The notes under the pieces are model-generated. The model was not told the origin of the DNA, did not search any database, and saw only the letters and a list, made by a program, of their open reading frames with translations. The position numbers and the translations under genes were made by a program. From positions 64,001 through 128,000 of the IMG/VR virus record IMGVR_UViG_3300025150_000003: 64,000 bases of DNA. One strand, given 5' to 3'. This DNA is from a virus. The first letter of the stretch is position 1. The number at the start of each line of letters is the position of its first letter. Shown here in pieces: positions 1,516 to 33,267 of this stretch.

Positions 1516-3114
1516 TCAGGGCTTGATCCCCACCAAGAAGGGTTCCCAACCCGGCTTCAGGGCCGTGGCCCACCCATCGAACTTGGCTGCCTCTGAGGTT
1601 GCTGCCGCAGTTAGGGAGTAGCCATCCTTGAGTCCGTTCTTCGCTTTCCCGGTTGCCCCCCCGTAATCCAAAGCGATTCTATCAACAACCTGTGGGTCGA
1701 TGTTGCCCACTTTGCCCACGACCTCTCGCTCGGCACCGAAGTGCTGATCGATAGCCTTGCTCGTGTTCAAATATTTCGGAAAGCCACTGTTTCCAGTGAT
1801 GAATGTCAGCCCCTTACGTCGAGCTACAAAAGCTCCGGTGGGCACCCTGACACACCACACCGTCCCTGTGTGGTGCACCTTTTCAACCTGAACAGCTACC
1901 CTTGCCAGATCGGCAAGGGCTTCCCATGCGCCTCGAACAGCTTGTGTGCCTGATTCGAGGCGAACAACGCCAAGTTCTCCAGCCTGTTGTCCACGGGGTT
2001 GTGGTTCAAGTGATGCACCGTCTCCTGTCGAGAGAGACACCGACCCAACACCTGAGCTACGATCAGTCGGTGTTCCATGATGTACCCATCCTTGCGGGCC
2101 ATCGGGCGGAACTCGGGGGGGCAGCGCAAGTACCGGATCTGTCCGTTCTTGGTGTAGTTGCCCTTTTTCCTGAAGTAGGTCACCCCACCCTTCCAAGCCG
2201 GGTTGCTCGGCCCCGTCATTTTCTTGATCGCAGATGCTCTCCCTTCGGGAGACACCGCCGCAGCCCCCTTGTGCCCGTGCTTCGCCCAGTCCTGACCCCG
2301 ATGCACTCCGTTGCACTTCCGAGAGCAAACTGGCTGGCGTGCCCCCTTCCGAAGCCACGCATCGGGATACCACTTCAGCGTGCCACACACTGTGCAGGCA
2401 ATGAACTGCCCCTTCCGTTCCGCCAGGGGCTTCTTGATCTGCACTCGGATCCGGTTCGCACAGGAACGTCCGCACGTCTGTTGTGACGCTTTGTGGGGGA
2501 TGAACTCCCCACTGCACGCTGGGCACAACCTCGGTTGCTTCCAGCCCCTCCGCTCGGATGAACTCCCAGTGACCCTCTCGTTGGACAAGGCAGCGGTGTC
2601 CGACGGACACGATGTGGTCAGTGCCGTCTCCATAGAGACGGTAGGCTTCTCGGTCGTAGGGGTACTCAAAGGTTTCCTCCACAGACTGCCATGTGAGTTG
2701 GCCGGTCTCGGGATTGAAGCCCAACACCTGCTTTCCGACCTTGGCTCTATGGTAGTGTGCCCACCCCTCTGGGGTCAAGATTTCAGTGTCCTCCGTGAGA
2801 CATCCGTACCCCCAAGCCTCAAGGGACCCTTCCACGGGCAGGACGAACCCTGCCTCCTCCATGGCAGCCGCAAGTCGATGGAATGTGCGGGTGGCCGAGA
2901 ACACCTTGATGATGCCGCCAGAGGGCAGAACGTCAAAGCAGGCTTTCAACCATTCTAGGTGCCAAGCCGCGTTTTCCTGACCAGTGCCTTCTGCATCCCA
3001 ATCCCTTGACATGAAGCCCACCAAGTATGGGGGGTCCGTGACCACAGCCCCGACACCCTTCAAAGTCTTTAGGACCTGGAAGCTGTCACCCAGTCTCAGC
3101 GTGATGGTCGTCAT
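1516..3114 (-). CDS. Beta-class (N4C/N6A) DNA methyltransferase, N-terminal catalytic half, intein-containing
   Basis: LGDS...VVTDPPY...VLPSGG...FHRLAAAMEEAGF...WGYG|intein|SGFPK...GWATALKPGWEPFLVGIKP-stop. No FxGxG motif. The start overlaps the upstream stop (TGATG at 3116-3112). Confidence 0.9.
   Translation of the reverse strand: MTTITLRLGDSFQVLKTLKGVGAVVTDPPYLVGFMSRDWDAEGTGQENAAWHLEWLKACFDVLPSGGIIKVFSATRTFHRLAAAMEEAGFVLPVEGSLEAWGYGCLTEDTEILTPEGWAHYHRAKVGKQVLGFNPETGQLTWQSVEETFEYPYDREAYRLYGDGTDHIVSVGHRCLVQREGHWEFIRAEGLEATEVVPSVQWGVHPPQSVTTDVRTFLCEPDPSADQEAPGGTEGAVHCLHSVWHAEVVSRCVASEGGTPASLLSEVQRSASGSGLGEARAQGGCGGVSRRESICDQENDGAEQPGLEGWGDLLQEKGQLHQERTDPVLALPPRVPPDGPQGWVHHGTPTDRSSGVGSVSLSTGDGASLEPQPRGQQAGELGVVRLESGTQAVRGAWEALADLARVAVQVEKVHHTGTVWCVRVPTGAFVARRKGLTFITGNSGFPKYLNTSKAIDQHFGAEREVVGKVGNIDPQVVDRIALDYGGATGKAKNGLKDGYSLTAAATSEAAKFDGWATALKPGWEPFLVGIKP
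1789..2802 (-). mobile_element. Intein (338 aa) inserted at YG|SGFPK of the methyltransferase
   Basis: Block A CLTEDTEILTPEGW, block B IVSVGHRCLV, blocks F/G TVWCVRVPTGAFVARRKGLTFITGN followed by +1 Ser. Removing it restores the conserved WxYGSGFPK motif. Confidence 0.9.
1896..2669 (-). CDS. Zinc-finger HNH homing endonuclease nested out of frame (+1) inside the intein; true start uncertain (TTG 2669, ATG 2633 or later)
   Basis: Four Cys pairs (CPAC, CGRSC, CTVC, CSRKC), GPSNPAWKGG, DGYIMEHRLIVAQVLGR and ETVHHLNHNPVDNRLENL (HNH_3 type). Codons in this frame are strongly G/C-ending. Confidence 0.88.
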   Translation of the reverse strand: MSTPTTEKPTVSMETALTTSCPSDTAALSNERVTGSSSERRGWKQPRLCPACSGEFIPHKASQQTCGRSCANRIRVQIKKPLAERKGQFIACTVCGTLKWYPDAWLRKGARQPVCSRKCNGVHRGQDWAKHGHKGAAAVSPEGRASAIKKMTGPSNPAWKGGVTYFRKKGNYTKNGQIRYLRCPPEFRPMARKDGYIMEHRLIVAQVLGRCLSRQETVHHLNHNPVDNRLENLALFASNQAHKLFEAHGKPLPIWQG

Positions 3115-4700
3115 CAGTCTTCACCAAACCAGTCGAGGAGGGACACAGTCTTCGGGGGCTCTTTCTTGACCTGGTGATCAGACACGATCTTCGTGTCGTG
3201 TCCCCGGTACTTCGAGGTGCTCCAGTAACGGATACGGGCATCCGCAATGGCGAGATACTCTGGCTCCCGCTCGATGCCCTCGAAATCATGACCTGTGATC
3301 GAACAAGCGATGCCCGTGGTCCCGGAGCCCAGGAAAGGATCCACCACGGCCCCCAGGTCCTTGGGGACATTGGCCAGCAACCTCTTCATGATTTCAATGG
3401 ACTTCACGGTCGGGTGGAAATTACGGACCTTCTTCGCAGTCCGCCCAGCCCCGGCTCGTGGGTTCTGCACCCCTGCCGAACCCTCTTCCCGTTCCACGGC
3501 CTCGTGCCCAGCCTTGGCCGGCAGCTTCGAGCAACCAGCCTCTCGCTCCTTCCTTCCTGCCTTGGCAACGTAGTGGAAGGAGCCAGGACCTTGGACAAGC
3601 AGGATGGCGTCACGGATCTCGAACCCTGCGTCCTCCAACCGAATGGCTCCGGTGTGACCTGTGGGCTGGGTATCGGGAGCGATGAGGAAGACGTGACCAC
3701 CCGGCGGGAGGACTCGCCAGCACTCGGTGATTTGGGACTCCGTGATGGTGTGACTGCCGCTGGTCACGACCAGGCCACAGACCGAGCCGGTCTCCCAGGT
3801 GGAGATGTCCGTCGTGGCGGAGATGACCACGGCTTGCTTGTCAGGAGTTGAGCCCATCGTGCGGAGATACTCGGTGAGGGTGTCTCCCGATGCCTGCTTG
3901 AAGAACCGGGAGGCACCTCCTGTGTCCCGGTGCCCCTCGGTATTTCCTGCTTTCCACCCAAACAAGCCCCCTTGATGGTCACGGCTTGTCCGAAAACTAT
4001 GAGGACGTTCCCCGCTCTGCTCATCCAGGTCTGCTACAGGGCAGTCAGGCTCACAATCCCACTCGGGGTCGGACTCCACCTGCTTGAAGAACCGGGAGGC
4101 ACCGCCGGTGTCCCCGTAGGAGACCATTGGTGTCCCCTCTGGACGATTCTCCTGACCAAAGGCTGCACTCCCATTGCCATCCTGGTCCCGCGAGGACGCC
4201 CTCTTGACCGCTCCCGTGCCCGAAGTGAGGCTCCCGCTCTGTTCATCCAGGTCAGCCACGGGGCAGCCAGACTCACAATCCCAAGCCGCAACCTGTTCCT
4301 TCCCCGTGGAATCCCCGTGTTGATTGCCAGGATGAGAGACACCGCGTAGCATCCCCGTTACGGATTCACCCTCATAGGCATCAGGTACAGTCTTCGATGA
4401 GGGACTGCCTTTGACGATCTTGGTGCCCGCCTGAACACAACCCGGTTTGTGTTGTAGGATGACGTTTGCAGGCCATCTCCCTGAGACCTCCGGGGGAGTG
4501 TCCCCTGCGCCACCCCGCTTGAAACGCCAGTCCTCAGGATTGGGTCGGGGAGTCGGGTCCGAAGCGTATGCCCCACCACCAAGATTGTCTTTGGTGGAGA
4601 GTCGGGTATCCCCGATGTTCAGGGACCCTGTGCCGTACTTGAGGGCGTTCTGCGCAACGGTGCCCTCAAGGGGCTTCCGGGCCATATGGATAACGATCAT
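3114..4700 (-). CDS. Beta-class DNA methyltransferase partner: TRD-like region, degenerate catalytic segment and SAM-binding motif I
   Basis: Begins ARKPLEGTVAQNALKYGTGSLNI...GRWPANV...GGASRFF, then ECWRVLPPGG...LEDAGFEIRD without DPPY, then NFHPTVKS...VVDPFLGSGTTG...GIERE. Start at ATG 4700 overlaps the upstream TGA (ATGA). Confidence 0.88.
   Translation of the reverse strand: MIVIHMARKPLEGTVAQNALKYGTGSLNIGDTRLSTKDNLGGGAYASDPTPRPNPEDWRFKRGGAGDTPPEVSGRWPANVILQHKPGCVQAGTKIVKGSPSSKTVPDAYEGESVTGMLRGVSHPGNQHGDSTGKEQVAAWDCESGCPVADLDEQSGSLTSGTGAVKRASSRDQDGNGSAAFGQENRPEGTPMVSYGDTGGASRFFKQVESDPEWDCEPDCPVADLDEQSGERPHSFRTSRDHQGGLFGWKAGNTEGHRDTGGASRFFKQASGDTLTEYLRTMGSTPDKQAVVISATTDISTWETGSVCGLVVTSGSHTITESQITECWRVLPPGGHVFLIAPDTQPTGHTGAIRLEDAGFEIRDAILLVQGPGSFHYVAKAGRKEREAGCSKLPAKAGHEAVEREEGSAGVQNPRAGAGRTAKKVRNFHPTVKSIEIMKRLLANVPKDLGAVVDPFLGSGTTGIACSITGHDFEGIEREPEYLAIADARIRYWSTSKYRGHDTKIVSDHQVKKEPPKTVSLLDWFGED
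3894..4283 (-). repeat. Internal tandem duplication within the methyltransferase partner gene
   Basis: Two units WDCExxCPVADLDEQSG...DTGGASRFFKQ (4283-4080 and 4061-3894) with near-identical ends and unrelated middles. Confidence 0.85.
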
Positions 4701-5671
4701 TCCGGGCATTGCAGCAGATCCAGGATAGAGTTGTTGTCCGGTTGGAGACAGTGGGGAGAAAACCAGAGAGTCTCAAGGGTGAGGTTCTTGGTTCCCTGCC
4801 CCCCTGCATTGGAGTAGCCCGTGTTGGACTGCCGACTCGTCCCTGCCCAGTTCCACTGAGCCCAGCCCTCGGGTAGGACCCGTCCATCGTCATACCCTGC
4901 TACTGCGATGCGTAGGGCGGGGTCATCCCCGTGCTGTACAGCCCAGTCCCATACGGCTGCCGCAATCCCAGCCTCATCGCTCAGACTTGCCCCCGTGGGA
5001 TAGAGCTGGTCTGTCCCACGTCCATAGGGGGGATCAAGGAACAGAGCGTTGATCTTGGCCGTCTTCAGCCCGGCCCCAAGCAACCGAGTCCAGTCCCCGC
5101 ACACAACCCGAACTTCCCGTAGCCGCTCGGAGAGCATCTGGAAATGATCCAGCGTGATCTTGCCCACCCGCTTGTAGGTCAGGTGTGGAACCGTTCGACG
5201 GACACCTGGTCGGACATCCCCTTTTGGGCGAGCCTGGAAGACCCCGTCAATGGATACCCAGGGTCCCTTGCCGATGCACCAACCTCGGCCAATCCACGAA
5301 AGGGAACCCCACACCCACCAACCTGCGATCTTGGCGTCGTACCAGTGAGGGTCCCCCATCAACCTGTTCAAGATGTTCTCACTCTGGCCCACAAGCCAGA
5401 GATGTCGGGCGTGAAGGTCAGCCTCGTTCACAGGCCACTGAGCCCAACGAAGTACCTCCTCCGGCTCCGCAGCCACGGCTCGAAAGAAATTCGAGATGAA
5501 CCCATCGGCATCGTTGATGGTCTCCATCCCTTTGGGACCGTCGGGACGCATCAGCAACACTGCAGCCGAACCGGCGAAAGGCTCCACGTAGTTGGACACG
5601 GAACCAAACCGTCGCCACACCTCAGGGGCCACAGCATCCTTGTTGCCGAACCGAGAGAACGGGGCTTTCAT
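4697..5671 (-). CDS. Dam/D12-class (alpha) DNA adenine methyltransferase
   Basis: MKAPFSRFGNK, YVEPFAGSAAV, ETINDAD and FLDPPY. Start at ATG 5671 overlaps the helicase stop (TGATG). Confidence 0.9.
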   Translation of the reverse strand: MKAPFSRFGNKDAVAPEVWRRFGSVSNYVEPFAGSAAVLLMRPDGPKGMETINDADGFISNFFRAVAAEPEEVLRWAQWPVNEADLHARHLWLVGQSENILNRLMGDPHWYDAKIAGWWVWGSLSWIGRGWCIGKGPWVSIDGVFQARPKGDVRPGVRRTVPHLTYKRVGKITLDHFQMLSERLREVRVVCGDWTRLLGAGLKTAKINALFLDPPYGRGTDQLYPTGASLSDEAGIAAAVWDWAVQHGDDPALRIAVAGYDDGRVLPEGWAQWNWAGTSRQSNTGYSNAGGQGTKNLTLETLWFSPHCLQPDNNSILDLLQCPE

Positions 5672-8562
5672 CAGTCCGTCTCCAGTTCCTCTTTGGCGGC
5701 CTTGTCCACGGCCGCACCAATCTTGGCGTTCTCCTCGGGAGTCAGCGCCACATCGAAACAGCTCAGAAGCCGACGACAAGGCCACTCCACCCGGGCGATG
5801 AAGGGCAGGAACGCTGCCTGGTCACGAGACTTGAGACAGTTGAACTGCACCCTCGACTGAGCTTTCAACTCATCATCGATCCAGGTTGAGGTCACCACGT
5901 CGGCCGAGTTGTGTGACAGCACAGGCCCCGTTTGGTACTCGTGATCCCCGTCCACTTCCAGATCCATCACGGGCTCATCTCGACCCGTATCTACTACAGA
6001 AACGACCCGCATCACCTGGAAGGTCAACAATCGTCGTAAGAACTGGACTTCAGCACCTCCGATGCCCTTCTCCGATGCGTGTTGCACCAGAAGTTCCACG
6101 GCACTCCGAGGCACCAGCCCCGTCTTACGGACCTTTGCAGGCAGGTTATAAAAGCTCCGAGGGAACGCCCCCTGGACAGACCCCGCAGGATGCACTTGGG
6201 TAAAGGCAGACAAGAACGTGTGAGGTACTGGATACACCTGTTTGCGAGACTCCCGCCCGGATACTTGCTGTGCTTGCTTATCCTCTTGGGAGAACCCAAT
6301 GTCTTGATGAAAACGCTGGGCACTTTCACGAGTCCGCACCCGGAGTAACACTTTCGGGTAGGTTTTCCCGGTCCGGCGCAAGAAAGAGCCCCACTTAGAC
6401 AAGTCCGAGTCAATACCCAGGGCTGTCAACAGCAACTGTACTTGGCGCAGGAAGTCTTCACAGGCCCCCTTCATGTTAATGCCCACGACCCCCTGATTGT
6501 TCACCCATCCGTCTGTATCAAACAATCCCTGCAGGTAAGCACACACAATTTCACGGGGGGCCTGCAAGATGCAGGTGGGGACTTCGACAGCCCGTTTACC
6601 CGCCACCGTCTCAAACCACCGCTTCAGAGGCTGGCTCCACTTCACCAGTTCGAAGGATCCTGACCGAGAAGGGTTCTCTTGAAGGGGCAGGGTATGACCG
6701 AAGGTATGCTCAAAACAGGTATGGAGTCGATCCCGAACAGCCGTCTCTTTCCGGTTCCCCGTCCAACCCAGGCCCCGAGGGTGTGTCTTGCCGTCACCAT
6801 CCCAAGCTCCCAGCAAGTAGGCTAGATCACGAGTAACTTTGGCGGGAGTTTTCAAGGGGATTCCTTGCTGCCCACTCGGTTTTTCACCGGACCCAATGAC
6901 AAGGTCAGGGAGTGCCGGGAACCTGCTGGGCCATGCCTCCTCTTCGCCGAAGGTGCTTGCCACATAGTCCTTACCTGGACTCAAGTTGCTGATGGTCTGC
7001 CAACCCAATTGGCCATCTTGCACCACCCGCACTCGATGGGATGCCGTGCAACCTAGCTTGGACCCCCTGTCCGTTGTCACGTCCCAGATGCGGCGGACAC
7101 CATTGTCGAAAACCTGCTTGATTTGCTTCCAACCGGAACCCGACCACACGGTTTCTCTATATCGGGAAACCTCGTCAATGCGCACAATTCCCCGGCCAGA
7201 ACGGATGAAAGTGCTTGAAACTGCTACACATCGCTCGGCTTCGTTGGCGTAACTCAGGTGAGTCAAATTGTAGCCAGCAACACCGGTCTTCTCCTTCGTC
7301 TTGAGAGCACTCTTGTACCCCTCACGGGAAATTTGGAACAGACCGACGACCGCCATCCCCTGCCCACGGTTGAATCCCAGAGCGAGCTTCTTGAGGTCAC
7401 GGATGACCTCGTTCAGGTTCTCTGTGGTGCTGCTGCGATGCCGACGGGGCGACATGAGCCCGCAGTGGTCCACGAACACCATTGAGAAGGGGTCTTTGCT
7501 GTAGATGACCTCGGCCATGGACCGGAGGTCGTGCATCGTGAAATCGTCCTTGTCGGGGTCGGCAACCTCGATGTGGATCTTCGCGTAGTCCTGACCGAGG
7601 TAGGGGTGGTTCACCACATCCTCCCCATTGAAATCGGGGATCACATAGTCGAAGTAGAAGGCCTTGGCGTTGACATTCCACTCGTGCAGCTTGCCATCCC
7701 GGATGTCCTGGTAGGGCAGTCCTACGTCTTGCTCGGGGTCCGTCTGGATGCCCAGACGCATTCGGATCTCACGGAACTTCGGGTGCATCGAGTGGATGGC
7801 GTAGAGGATGCGCCGGCACTGACCGTAGGGCATCTCCAGGCTGAAGATCAGCACGTTGTGCTTGTAGATCACGGCCTGGTTGTAGGCCCAGTTGAGCATG
7901 AACGTGCTCTTCATCCCGCCGGTGAACGCAGCATGAATCCAAAGCTCGTGTCGCTTGGCCCCGCCGAGGGCATCATCGCACTGCTGGAGGAAACAGAACT
8001 GCCCAATACCGGCGAGAGGGTCTGCCTCGACCCTCTCGTACTCTTCCTTGACCGCAACACCATCCTTGGTGACTTCACCGGAGAGCCTCCCGCCGATGGT
8101 GGGAGCTACAATGTCGTGAGCCTTCTCCATCACATACCGGGCGGAGTGGATTGGCCCCAGGAGGATCTTCTTCTCCTTGCCATCCGCCACCTCCATCCCA
8201 GTGGAGGTGATGATGGACGCCTCCTTGAGCGTCTCAGCCCATACACGCTGCCGACGGTCGTTGGCCTTGTCTTCCAGGACTCGCTGGAAGTCCCCCTTGG
8301 TCCTTGCCTTCAGCCCCTCCAGCACCCGGAGCTGATCTAGGACCGAGTCCTCCTTGGAGTGCTCGAAGTGTGACCTCAGGGTCGCGAGGTTCGGGATGTG
8401 ACTATGAGCCCGGACGAACTCTTGGATGTAGGCCCAGATGGCGTTGTATTCAGGGACCTCGAAACCAAGGGCGGATCCGTTGAGCATCTGATAGTTGCGG
8501 AGCAACAGCTCGGGATTGTCCCCAGCATCCGCAATGAACACTGAGCGAAGCAGAGACTTCAT
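5671..8562 (-). CDS. dnaB: DnaB-like (SF4) replicative helicase with intein
   Basis: Walker A AFTGGMKST, IFSLEM, VFVDH, LFQISR, EAER|SADVV and CLKSRD. Confidence 0.9.
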   Translation of the reverse strand: MKSLLRSVFIADAGDNPELLLRNYQMLNGSALGFEVPEYNAIWAYIQEFVRAHSHIPNLATLRSHFEHSKEDSVLDQLRVLEGLKARTKGDFQRVLEDKANDRRQRVWAETLKEASIITSTGMEVADGKEKKILLGPIHSARYVMEKAHDIVAPTIGGRLSGEVTKDGVAVKEEYERVEADPLAGIGQFCFLQQCDDALGGAKRHELWIHAAFTGGMKSTFMLNWAYNQAVIYKHNVLIFSLEMPYGQCRRILYAIHSMHPKFREIRMRLGIQTDPEQDVGLPYQDIRDGKLHEWNVNAKAFYFDYVIPDFNGEDVVNHPYLGQDYAKIHIEVADPDKDDFTMHDLRSMAEVIYSKDPFSMVFVDHCGLMSPRRHRSSTTENLNEVIRDLKKLALGFNRGQGMAVVGLFQISREGYKSALKTKEKTGVAGYNLTHLSYANEAERCVAVSSTFIRSGRGIVRIDEVSRYRETVWSGSGWKQIKQVFDNGVRRIWDVTTDRGSKLGCTASHRVRVVQDGQLGWQTISNLSPGKDYVASTFGEEEAWPSRFPALPDLVIGSGEKPSGQQGIPLKTPAKVTRDLAYLLGAWDGDGKTHPRGLGWTGNRKETAVRDRLHTCFEHTFGHTLPLQENPSRSGSFELVKWSQPLKRWFETVAGKRAVEVPTCILQAPREIVCAYLQGLFDTDGWVNNQGVVGINMKGACEDFLRQVQLLLTALGIDSDLSKWGSFLRRTGKTYPKVLLRVRTRESAQRFHQDIGFSQEDKQAQQVSGRESRKQVYPVPHTFLSAFTQVHPAGSVQGAFPRSFYNLPAKVRKTGLVPRSAVELLVQHASEKGIGGAEVQFLRRLLTFQVMRVVSVVDTGRDEPVMDLEVDGDHEYQTGPVLSHNSADVVTSTWIDDELKAQSRVQFNCLKSRDQAAFLPFIARVEWPCRRLLSCFDVALTPEENAKIGAAVDKAAKEELETD
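5908..7230 (-). mobile_element. Intein (441 aa) with LAGLIDADG homing endonuclease in the DnaB-like helicase
   Basis: Starts CVAVSSTF, block B CTASHRV, LAYLLGAWDGDG and AYLQGLFDTDG, ends VMDLEV...VLSHN|S. The DNA looks more AT-rich than its flanks. Confidence 0.92.
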
Positions 8563-28900: not shown

Positions 28901-28980
28901 CCAGGACGTACCGTCGTGGCATCGGGGGCCATCTTGCCAGGACCAGTGTTCAGGGTCCCAGGGTTCAGGATCCGAGGCAT
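25936..28980 (-). CDS. Right-handed parallel beta-helix (pectin-lyase-like) tailspike or receptor-binding protein
   Basis: 1014 aa with many I-x-x-N/GN-x-V/I rung motifs over the C-terminal two thirds. Confidence 0.8.
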   Translation of the reverse strand: MPRILNPGTLNTGPGKMAPDATTVRPGLIGPGLVGPGPNVGEIDKGALPGVPGASLLDSLAHHTDPRTADHEKLFADLFSSWVIRGGEMTTAPLGIDDILDFAELTVLIAGVRTVLPAQSFQVDATLGVEGYVYIDGTDPYCPVYAYTNALPLPLSNDVLVGEYTPDGFGIVLAYYDLRQPLVDVDKRLDITVGAYTGHDQPGDAHFNELADAVEFVARTTNVSNGQFRRIKIIGPTEEDITKLPMNFAISGLIIEGAGRRGDGSVGTSYEVTWRGDAPSLFNLNGCSDWIIRDVAFRFDDQAAPDLGSTTNRNLFVVDSGLASNIVFENLTLAGPAHSFLFHPGGFGPTFGVSNLLFRNCTALDLTDTAIYVDSAVDTSDRVLIEHCNFTARKSTDAPGPALGLMTPYGIIHAGQCIGWTVRDTILTGGDTGVFADGLGPILIDNCTISDTDEQGVYLGCPYSSLQNSRLVSVYTLAAPKMGVTTTGTYAKVLHNKVTLSGGVLNDLAIDSQGIGAEILGNEVDYNIGVGDYSVVSFNRATVGGYLIVNGDQVQTNSNWFESLVATGQYGSYEGDQFLGNDPILVGSFNFFSNVTFGAVTVAFNGRVTLGSDCSFIGCYFLNGFQDSGVDAERNRFEGCQIGIQADITLAGNYNSFLGNHLTQSAAGLMLEIDGVGTIFCKNQVSVTTLHFTDGGGAGAQNFVVCDNVVQNDGADGGGIWFEGQYSTIRGNVIGGKEKESGSPNIYSLNFLGGSSVCENNVMSFSLFGQGDYCLFSGNHVAGDAVLSSSSKCKFLDNQVQGTFTTSGCTSIVIRGNDVVGAVAFEGGAGDFVYEITSNHFTGAVTWTLPSVCSQPVISNNHFDAATSFGGMDNGTFTGNFCLDTLSIQAVLRTTVQGNRCAGAVTLNNSDQVVFQGNWVGTSVGAAASVDLTGSDNYVVVGNLITGDLLVNAGAAATNTGVIVGNRTASINSAVPAAAPTVGQVAVGNKVDNLATVFNVAPGTATANSNNVED

Positions 28981-31900
28981 GTACGACCTCCCACGGTCAG
29001 CAGCAGATTGCGGGTCCGGTAAACTGCCGCCAGGGTCCGGTTGTCCGCAATGGGGTCCACGAACCGGACGTTGTTCTCAGCGTCCAGCTCAGCAAACCGA
29101 GAGAGAACCACAAGGAGCAGCTCCGACTTGCGGAAGAGCAGGCCCCCGTCCACCCCAGGTACATCCGCCACAGCCCGAGCCAAGAAAGGCACGAAGCTCT
29201 TGTGTCGGGTTGCCCCGGACAAGGGTTGAGCCATCACGGTGGGTCGGTAGGCCGTATCATCGGCGAACGGGTAGTAGGCCCGGAACTCCGCATCCTGCCG
29301 GGGCTTCTCGGTGGCCCCTGCCCCACCGAGACTCAGGATGTCCTGCACGTCCTGCTGCACGAAAGCGTGCAGGTTGAGCAGGCCTGTAGAGGCATCGAAG
29401 TCGGCGACCGCAACCTCGGCTGTCGCCGCAAAGAACCATTCCTCGGTGGTGTCAGTCCCGTCGTTCAACGGAATCTGATCCAGAGGAGCGTTGTACGGGA
29501 AGGACTTGTCGCAGCCACCCATGCCGAGCTGGCCTGTCCAGACACTTGGGCTGGTCAGCAGAGGCTCCACCTGAAGGGTGGTGGGCAACGTCCCAGTTCC
29601 CGTCGAGGTGATGTCACCTTCCTTGGTCCCTGCCGTCTGCGGGGAGTTCGAGCGGAAGTAGTATGAGATCTGGTAGCCCGCACCGTTCACCCCGTAGTTC
29701 GGAATGGGGTCCTGAGCGAAGTAGGTGATGGTGCACAGCGTGTGACCCACACCGGAAAGGAGACCGGTGAGGGCCGTATCCAGCTCGATGATTCGGCTGG
29801 AGGAGCCCAACTCAGAATTCGCCACGTCCACAGTCATGGGCGACACAATGGGGGTGTCCTCTACAGACAAACCAAGCCCAGCCCCATTGCTCCAGACCCG
29901 CCGAGGGAATCGTAGAGTGTCCCGGTCGAGGGACACGATCTGCTCCACCGTGGTTGTACCAACAGGGTCTCCCGCCAGAGGAGCACCGTGGGCGATGGTG
30001 TCGTTGGCGATGTATTCGCTCTGGATCTCCCGGTAGGCCAGACGATAGCGGGCAGGGAGCAACAGTTCATAGTCCGCCGGACGCTGGAGGATGTCATTCT
30101 CGACCAGTGGGCCGGGTCCCGTCACCGTCAGCACGTCATCCGAGTAGACGGTGACGTCAGGATCCACCTCGAAGTCTACGGTGTCCGTCGTCCCCTCACC
30201 CACTGGATAGGTGATCTCCACCTCCAAGAAGATGCGACGAGGAGAACCATAGTCCGCCGGAGCAGCCAAGACACCCGAACCCGCCATCTTGTGCTCGATG
30301 TTGGGTCCAGCGATGGGTTGCCCCTCAGTGGTCAGGGTGTCATTGGCATCCAAGGTCAGTTCAAGATGCGTGGTCCCCAACCCCTTGATGATCCCGAACT
30401 GCACATTTTGGTTGGTTACCTGGTCATAGTGGCCGTCATCGTGCCACGCATTGAGCACGTCCGTGATGACCGTGCCCGTCGGTGCGAGCGCCAAGAAATT
30501 CTGGTCGGGCATCCCGACACCCGAGCCTCCACCACCGTCACCCGCCCCGTTGCGGCTGTCGAACAGGCCACCCAGCGTCGTTGCGTTCAGGAACTCCAGG
30601 TCCAGATGGAGTACGTCGCCCTCGTACCAGGTCGTCGCTGAGGCAACGTCCTTGGTCACATACTTGCCTGGGTTGTTCGTGCCCGGCAGGACAGCCACCC
30701 CATCCCGGTCGCCAGGCCAGTACCCAATCACCACCCGTTCTACGACGGGCTGGGCTCCAAAGCGACGAGCAATGTGGTCGTAACTGCGTACCAGTACGCC
30801 TCGGTCAGTGCTCTCGCCAGAGCCGGGTGCCCCGCCACCTTCTGCTATAGTGCGGCCGATCTCATTGCAGATCAGGTAGCGAGTCGAGACGTCACCCGAG
30901 GCTCCACCAAGAACCTGCTTGCTGGCGGTATCCACCGACCAGGTCCGTAGGCTGCCGTCCAGGAGACTCTGCACCTGGTACTGCAACTCGGTGGCCAGAT
31001 CGATGCCAGAGGGGACAACGTGACGCCGGAGATCGAGCAGGTTCTCCTGTGTGATGACATCGCAGAAGTGTCCATCAGGTCGGTCCGAAGCCCCTGCGGG
31101 AACTGCTCCCAGCACCCCAACGAACCCTGCGTGGTCGTACACCGGGGCGCCATTGGTGTTCGCCACTGGGTCAAACCCCAGGATGGCGGCCAACACGTCG
31201 CTGGCATCGTTGTGGCGATGCACGAACGCGATGGGGATGGCGTAGACGAACCCGTCGATGGCCCCAAGGGCCTGAGCAGCCGCCTCGGATCCGTCACCAG
31301 CCACGTACAGCCCATCGTCCTTCCACCCGAAATCCACTGCCGACGTATCGAGCCAGGTACTGGCCCCATCCGCAGGGACGAAGGGGAAGGACAAGGTGTC
31401 CACGCCGTTGCCTGTCCAGACAGGCACCGCACGGTTGCCTTGGGCGAACACAGCGGCATCGAGGGGTCCACCACCAGCAATGCGGCTGGAGAATCCATCG
31501 GGGTTGACTTTGTAGTTGATCGCCTCGGAATCGTCCGTGACTCGGACCCGGTACTGAAGCTGGATGCGCTGACTCGTCTCCGTGTTGGCAACTGGGTCAA
31601 AGATCTCATCGTCGAGCCACACAGGCGACGGGGAGAGCACGTTGCCGTGCCGGAAAATCTGACCCTGTGACGTAGTCGGCTTGTTCGGGCGGTCCTCACC
31701 ACCGGTGAACAGAGCCCCCGAGACAGTCATGCACCCCACCGTCCCCACGGTGACAGACAAGGTGATGAAGTTGCCTGTGAACAAGAGGGCAGAGCCCGCT
31801 CCGGGCTCTACCGCCGTCAAGTTCACGTCACTGCCAGAATCCACCGCTGTCACGATGGTGGCGAAGGAGTTGCCCACGTCGTTGATGGCCGTCGCGATGT

Positions 31901-32621
31901 TCGTGGCCGTTGCGGTCTCTGTACCACCGATCACGAACTCATCAACTCCAGGAGGACCCACTGCGATGGCCGTCAACGGCAGAGAGTTGATGGAGATGAT
32001 GTCGCCCGGCACGATGTCGCCGACGGAAATGACCTGCACCTGTGCGGTTGCAGGTAGGGATGGGGCAACGAGGGCTCGCCAGACTTCGAGGAACACGAAG
32101 TCCGTCCGTTTCACGGTGGCGTTGGTGCCATCATAGATCTTCGCTGGGGACAGGCCGATCAGGTTGAACCCTGCCACCTGGGTGTTGGTGAACTCCACCA
32201 CCACGGGGTAGCCGGCCACCACCGCTTCCAGCCGTGGAAGCACCAGCGAGCTGGTCAGTGTGTTGTCTGCATGGATGAGAGGAATGCCCAGGGGAATGTC
32301 CACCAAGGCGGAGTCATCCGTGATGCCTACAGGAGCTGTTTCGGTGCCCCAGTCGCAGTAGGCATCCTGGTGTGTCCGACCTCGGAGCCAACCAGAACCA
32401 GTATCCCAACGACGAAGGAGATAGTTCTCCATCCATTGGGCGGCCTGGTGAAGGTTCAGCTCGCAGTCGAGCACTGGCTTCCCAGACTCGGAGATCACGG
32501 CGAGGAACGACCGCTCCCCTGTCCCGGCCGACCTGGATACCGTGTTCGGTACTCGCAGGCCAACCGGCGTCGGGGCGATCTGAATCCCGTCGAAATATTC
32601 GGAATGGTCCTTGACCGCCAC
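28965..32621 (-). CDS. Virion (baseplate/tail-fibre-associated) protein, paralogue of 18870-25097
   Basis: 1218 aa. Motifs ESGKPVLDCELN, RTDFVFLEVW, ETSQRIQLQYRVRV, DGFVYAIPI and RPDGHFCD...DLR. Confidence 0.75.
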   Translation of the reverse strand: MAVKDHSEYFDGIQIAPTPVGLRVPNTVSRSAGTGERSFLAVISESGKPVLDCELNLHQAAQWMENYLLRRWDTGSGWLRGRTHQDAYCDWGTETAPVGITDDSALVDIPLGIPLIHADNTLTSSLVLPRLEAVVAGYPVVVEFTNTQVAGFNLIGLSPAKIYDGTNATVKRTDFVFLEVWRALVAPSLPATAQVQVISVGDIVPGDIISINSLPLTAIAVGPPGVDEFVIGGTETATATNIATAINDVGNSFATIVTAVDSGSDVNLTAVEPGAGSALLFTGNFITLSVTVGTVGCMTVSGALFTGGEDRPNKPTTSQGQIFRHGNVLSPSPVWLDDEIFDPVANTETSQRIQLQYRVRVTDDSEAINYKVNPDGFSSRIAGGGPLDAAVFAQGNRAVPVWTGNGVDTLSFPFVPADGASTWLDTSAVDFGWKDDGLYVAGDGSEAAAQALGAIDGFVYAIPIAFVHRHNDASDVLAAILGFDPVANTNGAPVYDHAGFVGVLGAVPAGASDRPDGHFCDVITQENLLDLRRHVVPSGIDLATELQYQVQSLLDGSLRTWSVDTASKQVLGGASGDVSTRYLICNEIGRTIAEGGGAPGSGESTDRGVLVRSYDHIARRFGAQPVVERVVIGYWPGDRDGVAVLPGTNNPGKYVTKDVASATTWYEGDVLHLDLEFLNATTLGGLFDSRNGAGDGGGGSGVGMPDQNFLALAPTGTVITDVLNAWHDDGHYDQVTNQNVQFGIIKGLGTTHLELTLDANDTLTTEGQPIAGPNIEHKMAGSGVLAAPADYGSPRRIFLEVEITYPVGEGTTDTVDFEVDPDVTVYSDDVLTVTGPGPLVENDILQRPADYELLLPARYRLAYREIQSEYIANDTIAHGAPLAGDPVGTTTVEQIVSLDRDTLRFPRRVWSNGAGLGLSVEDTPIVSPMTVDVANSELGSSSRIIELDTALTGLLSGVGHTLCTITYFAQDPIPNYGVNGAGYQISYYFRSNSPQTAGTKEGDITSTGTGTLPTTLQVEPLLTSPSVWTGQLGMGGCDKSFPYNAPLDQIPLNDGTDTTEEWFFAATAEVAVADFDASTGLLNLHAFVQQDVQDILSLGGAGATEKPRQDAEFRAYYPFADDTAYRPTVMAQPLSGATRHKSFVPFLARAVADVPGVDGGLLFRKSELLLVVLSRFAELDAENNVRFVDPIADNRTLAAVYRTRNLLLTVGGRTCLGS

Positions 32622-32631
32622 AGGGCGCCTC

Positions 32632-33267
32632 CTAGAAGCTCAAGCGCCAGGTGATGGCAAGAATCGCTGTCGCGGGCTTCGAGACGACGGAAAATGTTAG
32701 GTAATTCGCCATCAGGTCGAACCCGTCCACGTCGATGGAGGGGTCGTAGTCCGAGGGGCCATTGACGATGGGGTTCGTGATAGCCGGGTTGAGCGAGGCG
32801 GGCACCAGCAGGCCCATCTCGTTGAGAGCACCCACGGCCTCTGACTCACCGTAGCTCGTCGTGAAGTCCACGATGTTGGTTCGGTACGCAACAGCGACGC
32901 CTGCCGCTGTGCGGTAGGTCGTAGACGAGAAGGCCTTGCGGGCGATCTCCGTGTTGAGCCTCCGCTGAGTGTTCTGCGGAGCATCCGGTGAAAGCACTGC
33001 TCCCGTTGCCCCCGTCCCCACGGCAAGCATCTTCAGCCCACCCGTCAGGTCGCCCTTGAAATGGGCCGCCGCTGCGATGCCTGCATCGAGGGTGATGATG
33101 TTGTCCCTCTCCCAATAAACGAGCTGCTCACCCGTCTTGGCGTCCTTCATGTCGAAGATGAAGGTGCCCTTGGGGCCGGGACCTTGCTCTGGATACAACA
33201 TTCCCAGCCCCATCTTGAACTGCTGGTAGGCCGCTTGCAGCCGCATTCTGTCTTGTAGGAGCGCCAT
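32632..33267 (-). CDS. Baseplate/tail-fibre attachment (tail-collar-like) protein
   Basis: NIIT...LAVGTG...LNTEIARK...EAVGALNEMGL...ITWRLSF pattern typical of myophage fibre N-terminal domains. Confidence 0.7.
   Translation of the reverse strand: MALLQDRMRLQAAYQQFKMGLGMLYPEQGPGPKGTFIFDMKDAKTGEQLVYWERDNIITLDAGIAAAAHFKGDLTGGLKMLAVGTGATGAVLSPDAPQNTQRRLNTEIARKAFSSTTYRTAAGVAVAYRTNIVDFTTSYGESEAVGALNEMGLLVPASLNPAITNPIVNGPSDYDPSIDVDGFDLMANYLTFSVVSKPATAILAITWRLSF

Follow-up and report, generated by a model that had tools for sequence, protein, structure and literature searches.

Overlapping phage genes with the complementary halves of a proposed two-subunit beta-class amino DNA methyltransferase

The phage beta-class N6/N4 amino-methyltransferases (PF01555), such as gp61 of Mycobacterium phage Tripl3t (QBI97213) and the product of a 543-aa ORF in the uncultured huge phage LR745208, are single-chain enzymes with a catalytic half (N), a target-recognition region (T) and a SAM-binding half (C). 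The C5 methyltransferases of the phages SPR and phi3T are multispecific and have tandem target-recognition domains. In M.AquI and M.EcoHK31I, both cytosine-5 methyltransferases, the conserved motifs are divided over two polypeptides and both polypeptides are needed (PMC3404938). Beta-class enzymes are generally dimers with a division of labour, and in METTL3-METTL14 and the ciliate MTA1-MTA9 an active beta-class subunit is paired with a degenerate one (PMC7544214). A partial search of the literature gave neither a description nor a published name for a split amino-methyltransferase of the kind reported here.

The window, that is the whole stretch of 64,000 nucleotides that was analysed, comes from a large uncultured phage and contains two overlapping genes, A and B, whose products are probably the two subunits of one beta-class amino DNA methyltransferase, proposed to form only when the two interlock. 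The features of the gene pair are as follows.

3114-4709, minus strand: gene A, 531 aa, an ORF call with its first ATG at 4709
4074-4709, minus strand: T module, residues 1-212 of A, aligning to residues 210-420 of the single-chain LR745208 protein (L003) with invariant columns
3882-4073, minus strand: T', residues 213-276 of A, a second, incomplete copy of the final third of T (WDCEPDCPVADLDEQSG...GGASRFFKQ)
3582-3881, minus strand: N*, residues 277-376 of A, a catalytic-half copy that lacks motif IV
3210-3581, minus strand: C half, residues 377-500 of A, with Pfam and NCBIfam matches
3117-3209, minus strand: C-terminal tail of A, ending in the acidic L-x-D-x-F-G motif of the family (alignment)
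1516-3114, minus strand: gene B, an ORF call, 532-aa precursor of the DPPY catalytic half with an intein inside
2803-3114, minus strand: N-extein, residues 1-104 of B, on positions 2-112 of the B-family profile
1789-2802, minus strand: intein, residues 105-442 of B, starting with CLTEDTEIL and ending with FITGN, followed by Ser+1
1896-2669, minus strand: HNH endonuclease ORF nested in the intein, frame +1 with respect to gene B (PF13392 HNH_3, E 5e-8)
1519-1788, minus strand: C-extein, residues 443-532 of B, on positions 112-205 of the B-family profile

The only methyltransferase family detected in A and B is PF01555 (N6_N4_Mtase). Both proteins score above its curated cut-off of 26.7 bits, each covering one end of the profile only: A with 52.6 bits on positions 159-219 of 221 (motif I end) and B with 33.1 bits on positions 3-73 (DPPY end). 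Motif IV, VVTDPPY, is present in B and absent from A, while motif X (HPTVK) and motif I (DPFLGSGTT) are found in A only. The initial annotation, with two ORFs of which neither encodes both motif IV and motif I, thus agrees with the Pfam result. The order IV - TRD - I does not occur in one polypeptide; the genes give TRD - (dead IV) - I and then IV. Gene A had rightly been placed upstream on the minus strand, but its start is the first ATG at 4709 and not 4700. The TGATG coupling of the genes is a one-base overlap in which the stop of A and the ATG of B lie in ...GAC TGATG ACG.... The record covers about 32% of the genome, and other methyltransferase parts may be located elsewhere.

Aligned to the single-chain LR745208 relative, B covers residues 1-109 and 133-221 and A covers residues 210-435 and 433-518, with the internal dead half of A on residues 77-117. 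The two alignments jointly span the single-chain homologue, and the content of the two proteins is therefore complementary. The break between the genes had been described as exact, which does not hold. B terminates in ALKPGWEPFLVGIKP, and its last 12 residues (KPGWEPFLVGIKP) and the first 12 residues of A (PGMIVIHMARKP) both align to residues 210-221 of the single-chain enzyme; the strand at this position therefore occurs twice. A simple fission of an N-T-C gene at the ARKP strand is ruled out by the doubled strand and by the presence of N*.

Gene A encodes the scaffold, recognition and SAM-binding subunit, with the layout T-T'-N*-C, and full-length homologues were found. The T module starts with the strand MIVIHMARKP, followed by the target-recognition region with GTGSLNI, GRWPAN, CxxGCPVADLDEQSG and GGASRFFKQ. 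T' is 48% identical over 73 aa to residues 140-212 of A, with repeats of 51 and 39 nt at the DNA level (88-92% identity); it is an insertion in the alignment with 25 homologues and gave the second match when the phage's own genome was searched. N* reads GLVVTSG at the position of DPPY, followed by ECWRVLPPGGH and PTGHTGAIRLEDAGFEIRD, and matches the N half of Tripl3t gp61 with 50% identity over 48 aa (E 8e-11). This copy had been regarded as decayed. The absence of DPPY is common to 26 of 26 aligned homologues, but decay does not describe a module that is kept in all A-type homologues and has a core, PTGHTG...EDAGFEIRD, that few parts of the family surpass in conservation. N* is not a variant active site either, as no A-type protein has (D/N/S)PP(Y/F/W) there. 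The C half contains FHYVAKAGRKERE, motifs X and I, and motif II (GIERE), and matches M.RsrI, CcrM and M.BceJIV structurally (residues 376-508 of the A model). PDB sequence matches of A were restricted to the C half, and the T region had no match among solved structures.

The presence of an intein in B was corroborated. The N-extein includes the LRLGD strand, VVTDPPY and ...LEAWGYG, the C-extein reads SGFPKYLNTSKAID ... TALKPGWEPFLVGIKP, and uninterrupted homologues read ...AWxYGSGFPK... at the intein site. The exteins, 65% and 44% identical to the intein-free B protein P0242, exactly abut on the intein-free B profile, and the predicted spliced product is 194 aa. As read from the sequence, the catalytic half would depend on splicing of the intein. 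The intein consists of a mini-intein core, 66% and 57% identical to the L007 mini-intein, which has the same insertion site, and an insert of about 180 codons. The splice residues Cys105 (Cys1), Asn442 and Ser443 (+1) are in place and the SVGH block is present.

It is unlikely that the family design is real while the copy of this phage is inactive, with a B intein that no longer splices and no functional catalytic half. The matches to known inteins are weak (PF14890, E 0.21; NF038136, E 0.086; and, to a related mini-intein, the AceL NrdHF intein 6zgq, E 0.14), none being significant among the Pfam and NCBIfam intein profiles and PDB sequences, and the middle of the intein, the insert, is an off-frame reading of the HNH gene. 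The terminal Asn is preceded by Gly and not His; this G-N-S ending is, however, shared with the L007 mini-intein and the inteins of L008 and L011. Both exteins show good conservation, and the 532-codon frame is fully open despite the overlap with the HNH frame; no other off-frame open run on the same strand in the window is as long (292 codons, the median being 85). The same off-frame HNH layout occurs in LR756508, and this recurrence argues for maintenance of the dual-frame arrangement. Pfam gave no match for two further long off-frame open runs of the window.

The reading of A and B as interlocking subunits is favoured by the distribution of the two genes among relatives, which were drawn from protein databases. 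The A layout, recognised by the absence of DPPY, by ARKP near residue 7-12 and by N* before HPTVK and DPFxGSG, was found in 126 of the 232 relatives retrieved (at least 126 database clusters). Stand-alone B proteins number 50, with lengths of 88-280 aa; the 30 aligned ones all terminate at TALKPxWEPFxVGxKP, and DPPY is at least 90% conserved. An A protein that starts at ARKP and contains N* is found together with a separate B in one genome here, and the search for the arrangement in related phages that had been suggested initially showed a B gene at most 4 kb from A at all seven loci inspected (the window, the P0009 locus, L005/L006, L007, L008, L009 and L010). These loci share a SNF2-DnaB neighbourhood, and the L005/L006 locus has two B genes. 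The number of tandem T modules varies between one and three in relatives of A (P0003, P0004, P0012) and is one and a third in the A of the window. The locus had no megablast match among 50,697 phage records, and a pattern scan of IMG/VR with gene A gave no confirmed relative.

Natural fusions occur in both motif orders. Three single chains (P0176, P0174 and P0230) have the order N-T-N*-C, of which P0176 is located at the same syntenic place as A, while P0158 has the order T-N*-C-N and P0177 the order N*-C-N. A quick tree, midpoint-rooted and in effect unrooted, shows fusions of both orders scattered among the split forms, and thereby repeated fusion or fission without its direction. Judged from these sequences, the family displays stages of a permutation, since fused forms exist in both motif orders. 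The stages may be N-T-C as the canonical form, N-T-N*-C after duplication, [T-N*-C]+[N] after the split and, after re-fusion, T-N*-C-N with motif I before motif IV. The suggestion of a frozen intermediate is in this way partly retained: the permutation stages agree with it, but a widespread and conserved layout is not a rare frozen state.

The complex of a cognate, intein-free pair from a relative (P0015, its A about 53% identical to that of the window, and P0242, to which the exteins are 65% and 44% identical) was predicted together with SAM. The prediction had an ipSAE of 0.89, compared with 0.02 for the best of three controls, a value that indicates fold compatibility over binding, since split-gene halves tend to pass through their likeness to solved single-chain methyltransferases. 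The run used custom alignments and a ligand, neither of which was part of the calibration of the tool. Among solved complexes, 58 of 80 attain this ipSAE mark, and among mismatched pairs 2 of 110. At least 94% of the contacts agreed between runs, with a partner pLDDT of at least 85. The contacts with the lowest error are those of residues 355-362 of A (VVDPFLGSG) with residues 27-29 of B, just before DPPY, of A 377-381 with B 5-9, and of A 88-92 (WPANV) with B 146-150 (LKPGW). In the predicted complex of the relative, the strand of B that precedes DPPY (beta4) adjoins the motif I strand of A. An AlphaFold2 model of the natural fusion P0158 (pLDDT 76.9, pTM 0.80) agrees with this division of the fold: residues 293-546, C followed by N, match whole class-I methyltransferase domains (best match Trm11, 6zxv_B; Z 17.5, rmsd 3.1, 177 aligned) and N* falls outside. 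The model of A alone is mediocre (mean pLDDT 68.5), with much of T disordered, and is of little use for T; it gave half-domain matches only (best Z 8.7, 84 aligned).

These models bear on whether A could be independent of B, with N* and C folding in cis into a dead SAM-binding protein with a DNA-binding or regulatory role and B having another partner or none, which we consider very improbable. Every fold element except the catalytic loops is present within A, N* is strongly conserved, and at L007-L010 the B gene is not adjacent to A. In the model of A alone, however, N* and C were matched separately and no methyltransferase match extended across both; C pairs with the live N in the fusion model, and the predicted complex has beta4 of B beside the motif I strand of A. 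B is moreover half a fold without a SAM site, its catalytic residues are invariant, and A-B fusions occur. That the gene pair is debris of a recent rearrangement, or a mis-assembly, of a normal single-chain methyltransferase gene is hardly credible, for although a related huge phage has such a gene directly after dnaB and the genes stand in the reverse order of the motifs, the cut is at identical residues in many independent metagenome assemblies (JGI, ENA, Logan), both frames are intact and the motif residues are invariant family-wide. Recent decay or mis-assembly, named beforehand as grounds for rejecting the two-subunit enzyme, is contradicted by the relatives; their sequences show the two-gene layout to be widespread and conserved and not to be decaying.

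Conservation of the split, co-location of A and B, natural fusions, the complex prediction and the fold model of the fusion together favour the obligate heteromer proposed initially. In this heteromer, spliced B would give the Rossmann strands beta3 to beta7 and the catalytic DPPY loop, and A would give the SAM-binding strands beta1-beta2 (motifs X, I and II), slotting between beta3 and beta4 of B, with the SAM pocket of A then facing the catalytic loop of B. The T module of A would contact the conserved ALKPGWEP segment of B, like in the single-chain relatives. The catalytically dead N* is predicted to pack as a scaffold on the outer helix and strand of B, the placement of N* and of the first strand of A being taken from contact lists, and may take the place that the second protomer has in the usual beta-class homodimer. 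The enzyme would serve to mark the DNA of the phage itself. The target is probably N6-adenine, of which we take the presence of DPPY, and not SPPY, in B to be a hint.

In some relatives there are as many as three T modules and two B genes, which suggests that the design could give one core several specificities. It is conceivable, though tentative, that the phage family keeps the stages of the permutation side by side and that the split form is retained as a kit, with a SAM-binding hub and exchangeable N halves and T modules giving several specificities, and with N* hard-wiring the division of labour of the dimer.

Annotation and the assessment of phage anti-restriction treat DNA methyltransferases as single-chain enzymes, and a large clade with the Rossmann fold divided over two or more genes would then be missed or called broken. 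If the subunits assemble, they would represent natural fragment complementation in a class-I methyltransferase, with the boundary between beta2 and beta3 as the point of division, and the family would give living examples of the circular permutation long discussed for the alpha, beta and gamma classes. Split methyltransferases with interchangeable recognition modules could be engineered on the model of the pair, which is also relevant to the question of how the very large genomes of huge phages are protected against many restriction systems.

Compared with the described systems, A and B are closest to the single-chain phage enzymes, with which they share DPPY, YGSGFPKS, ALKPxxEPIxxARKP, GRWPxN, GGASRFF, HPTVKP and DPFxGSGTT, and the LR745208 gene is in the same position, after dnaB. 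Those enzymes are one N-T-C chain without N*, whereas here N is separate, a dead N copy is located between T and C, and the strand preceding ARKP is present in both proteins. The likeness to M.AquI and M.EcoHK31I is one of principle only: they are of the C5 family, the C5 alpha/beta division of motifs is not found here, and they are isolated cases that are cut within or after the variable region and have no pseudo-half, whereas A and B belong to a large clade. The tandem T modules in relatives of A resemble the arrangement in the SPR and phi3T enzymes, which belong to a different family, and a specificity for each T module is presumed. METTL3-METTL14 and MTA1-MTA9 have, like A and B, a catalytically eroded paralogous domain beside an active one; their partners are each full folds, whereas here a dead half-fold is fused to the SAM-binding half that is predicted to complete the other chain.

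The source IMG/VR record is 169 kb long and by estimate about one third complete; the window comprises its bases 64001-128000. At the left window end the minus-strand gene order is dnaB, D12 methyltransferase, gene A, gene B and phoH:

5671-8562, minus: DnaB helicase gene with a LAGLIDADG intein (PF14528, E 1.6e-14; PF14890, E 1e-6)
4697-5785, minus: D12-class Dam-like methyltransferase gene (FAGSAAV ... LDPPYG)
3114-4709, minus: gene A, 531 aa
1516-3114, minus: gene B, 532 aa
670-1473, minus: phoH

The TGA of gene A and the ATG of gene B share one base, and the overlap given in the initial annotation holds. The D12 methyltransferase gene, between dnaB and gene A, overlaps the start of gene A by 13 nt; it looks like an insertion particular to the window phage, since gene A follows dnaB directly or nearly directly in the relatives inspected. 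Inteins are also present in dnaB of the related loci L008 and L009, and the dnaB genes of L005, L007 and L010 are intein-free (about 520 aa).

Genes A and B hold complementary halves of a beta-class methyltransferase, as first described. Of the 221 positions of the Pfam profile PF01555, gene A matches only 159-219 and gene B only 3-73. The A protein begins with MPGMIVIHMARKPLEGTVAQN and carries HPTVK and DPFLGSGTT, with DPPY absent; the B protein holds VVTDPPY and ends with ALKPGWEPFLVGIKP. Both belong to PF01555 by motifs, and the defining IV-TRD-I order is not found in one chain. Their parts are:

A residues 1-212: T, DNA-recognition module
A residues 213-276: T', partial repeat of the last third of T (48% identity over 73 aa; DNA repeats 88-92% identity)
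A residues 277-376: N*, a copy of the catalytic half N, with GLVVTSG in the place of DPPY, then ECWRVLPPGGH and PTGHTGAIRLEDAGFEIRD
A residues 377-500: C, SAM-binding half
B residues 1-104 and 443-532: exteins
B residues 105-442 (window 1789-2802, minus): intein, first residue Cys, last Asn, then Ser

The exteins match the profile of intein-free B proteins at 2-112 and 112-205, abutting exactly. L007 has a mini-intein inserted at this site, to which the B intein shows 66% and 57% identity; intein profiles match the B intein only weakly. Within the intein an HNH endonuclease (PF13392, E 5e-8) is encoded at 1896-2669 (minus) in the +1 frame relative to gene B, whose own frame is open throughout; the L007 mini-intein lacks this insert of about 180 codons. 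No other off-frame open run on the same strand of the window is as long as this overlap of 292 codons (median 85). The second longest, 284 codons in the +1 frame at 30872-31726, lies in a 1218-aa ORF (28965-32639, minus), and neither frame there has a Pfam match. The huge phage LR756508 (L011) has a single-chain methyltransferase with an intein at the equivalent site and an HNH ORF, 38% identical, also in the +1 frame (coordinates 1918-4269 and 2291-3175).

Among named relatives the closest is a 543-aa ORF, without annotation, in huge phage LR745208; it is an ordinary single chain directly after the dnaB of that phage. Gene B aligns to residues 1-109 and 133-221 of this ORF and gene A to residues 210-435 and 433-518, with a further piece at 77-117. 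Residues 210-221 are matched twice, by the final strand of B and by the initial strand of A, so this element is present in duplicate and has not been cut. The initial annotation was thus right about the split and wrong in placing a clean break there.

The N* copy had been called decayed, yet it is not eroding: in the alignment of homologues few stretches of the family are as well conserved. Its identity to the N half of the canonical Tripl3t gp61 is 50% over 48 aa (E 8e-11); the B-type N half is less similar, at 35% over 37 aa (E 0.005). A-type proteins also have a conserved acidic C-terminal tail, roughly S-L-x-D-x-F-G (window 3117-3209, minus), which takes part in no predicted contact with B.

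Among 5.8 billion proteins searched, many full-length gene A homologues were found. When 232 fetched relatives were sorted by their motifs, 126 had the A layout and 23 were canonical single chains, and smaller forms (N*-C alone or T alone) also occurred; the A-type proteins have zero to three T modules, and some have inteins in C. With an intein-free B protein as query, 50 stand-alone B-type proteins of 88-280 aa were found, and all 30 that were aligned end, within a few residues, at TALKPxWEPFxVGxKP. By these counts and by its recurrence in relatives, the two-gene arrangement is not a decaying rearrangement, the alternative considered at the outset. B lies at most 4 kb from A in 7/7 loci with sufficient flank, adjoining it in the window, the locus of protein P0009 and L005/L006 (two B genes), and standing a few genes downstream in L007-L010. 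In L012 a gene with N*-C only is followed directly by a B gene. A neighbourhood of SNF2 helicase and DnaB is common to the loci.

Long A-type homologues (700-900 aa; P0016, P0051, P0071, P0079, P0090 and others) have inteins between N* and motif I, with Hint_2, LAGLIDADG_3 or Intein_splicing domains. As inteins occur in many A-type proteins of other phages, both subunits are frequent hosts of inteins. The B genes of L009 (7424-7575) and L008 (8419-8600) are interrupted directly after DPPYG by a Gly codon, a stop, a gap of 5 or 11 nt and GGA, after which LEFMGK(E/D)WD follows normally. The pattern is like that of gene-60-type translational bypassing; the frame could also be restored by a -1 shift. 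Of about 55 B-type database proteins, at least 10 begin with M(G/N/S)K(D/E)WD.

Natural fusions are of two kinds. P0176, P0174 and P0230 have the order N-T-N*-C in one chain and retain the duplicated strand in both copies, P0176 occupying the syntenic position of gene A; P0158 is T-N*-C-N and P0177 N*-C-N. A quick maximum-likelihood tree covered 126 rows of the N*-C region (midpoint root only to draw it; the careful search did not finish). In this tree the fused forms are dispersed among the split forms, and the well-supported branches require no fewer than three separate changes in the N-T-N*-C state. Fusion and fission have thus occurred repeatedly in the family, in a direction that the midpoint root does not fix.

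The complex was predicted for the cognate intein-free pair of L010, P0015 (431 aa) and P0242 (160 aa), with family alignments and SAM. The score was 0.89, against 0.02 for the best of three controls, with contact agreement of at least 94% and partner pLDDT of at least 85. This mark was reached by 58/80 solved complexes and 2/110 mismatched pairs, counts that hold only roughly because the run had its own alignments and a ligand. Likeness to solved single-chain enzymes can be enough for the two halves of a split gene to score well in such a prediction, and the score is taken as modelling evidence that both chains fit a single fold, not as proof that they bind. The contacts of lowest error join A 355-362 (VVDPFLGSG, strand beta1 and motif I) with B 27-29 in the strand preceding DPPY, A 377-381 (beta2) with B 5-9 (first strand), A 88-92 (WPANV of T) with B 146-150 (LKPGW), and A 248-285 (N* helix and strand, FHYVAKA) with B 85, 97-109 and 150. 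The predicted contacts correspond to the class-I sheet order 3-2-1-4, A supplying strands 1-2 and B strands 3-7.

As an independent check, the natural fusion P0158 was modelled with AlphaFold2 from an alignment with A-type and B-type rows whose placement was checked; the model has mean pLDDT 76.9 and pTM 0.80. Its residues 293-546 (C then N) match whole methyltransferase domains (Z at least 8 for 988/1000 chains; best Trm11 6zxv_B, Z 17.5, rmsd 3.1, 177 aligned). Residues 209-297, the N* part, fall outside this domain. When A was modelled by itself (pLDDT 68.5), only half-domain matches were obtained (best Z 8.7, 84 aligned), N* and C being matched separately. From these models, C would be completed by the live N half and not by N*.

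The reading as a heteromeric enzyme, proposed in the initial annotation, is supported in silico. Spliced B and A would form one catalytic domain by fold complementation, bearing T, with N* as a scaffold at the outer face of B. Homodimers with a division of labour are typical of beta-class enzymes (PMC7544214), so N* may be what is left of a second protomer. Relatives with several T modules and B genes hint at a combinatorial specificity.

The literature search found no paper on a beta-class enzyme with its Rossmann fold divided between genes. Heterodimers of an active and a degenerate subunit are known in METTL3-METTL14 and MTA1-MTA9 (PMC7544214). Natural two-polypeptide methyltransferases have been reported for the C5 family, M.AquI and M.EcoHK31I (PMC3404938), whereas A and B belong to PF01555.
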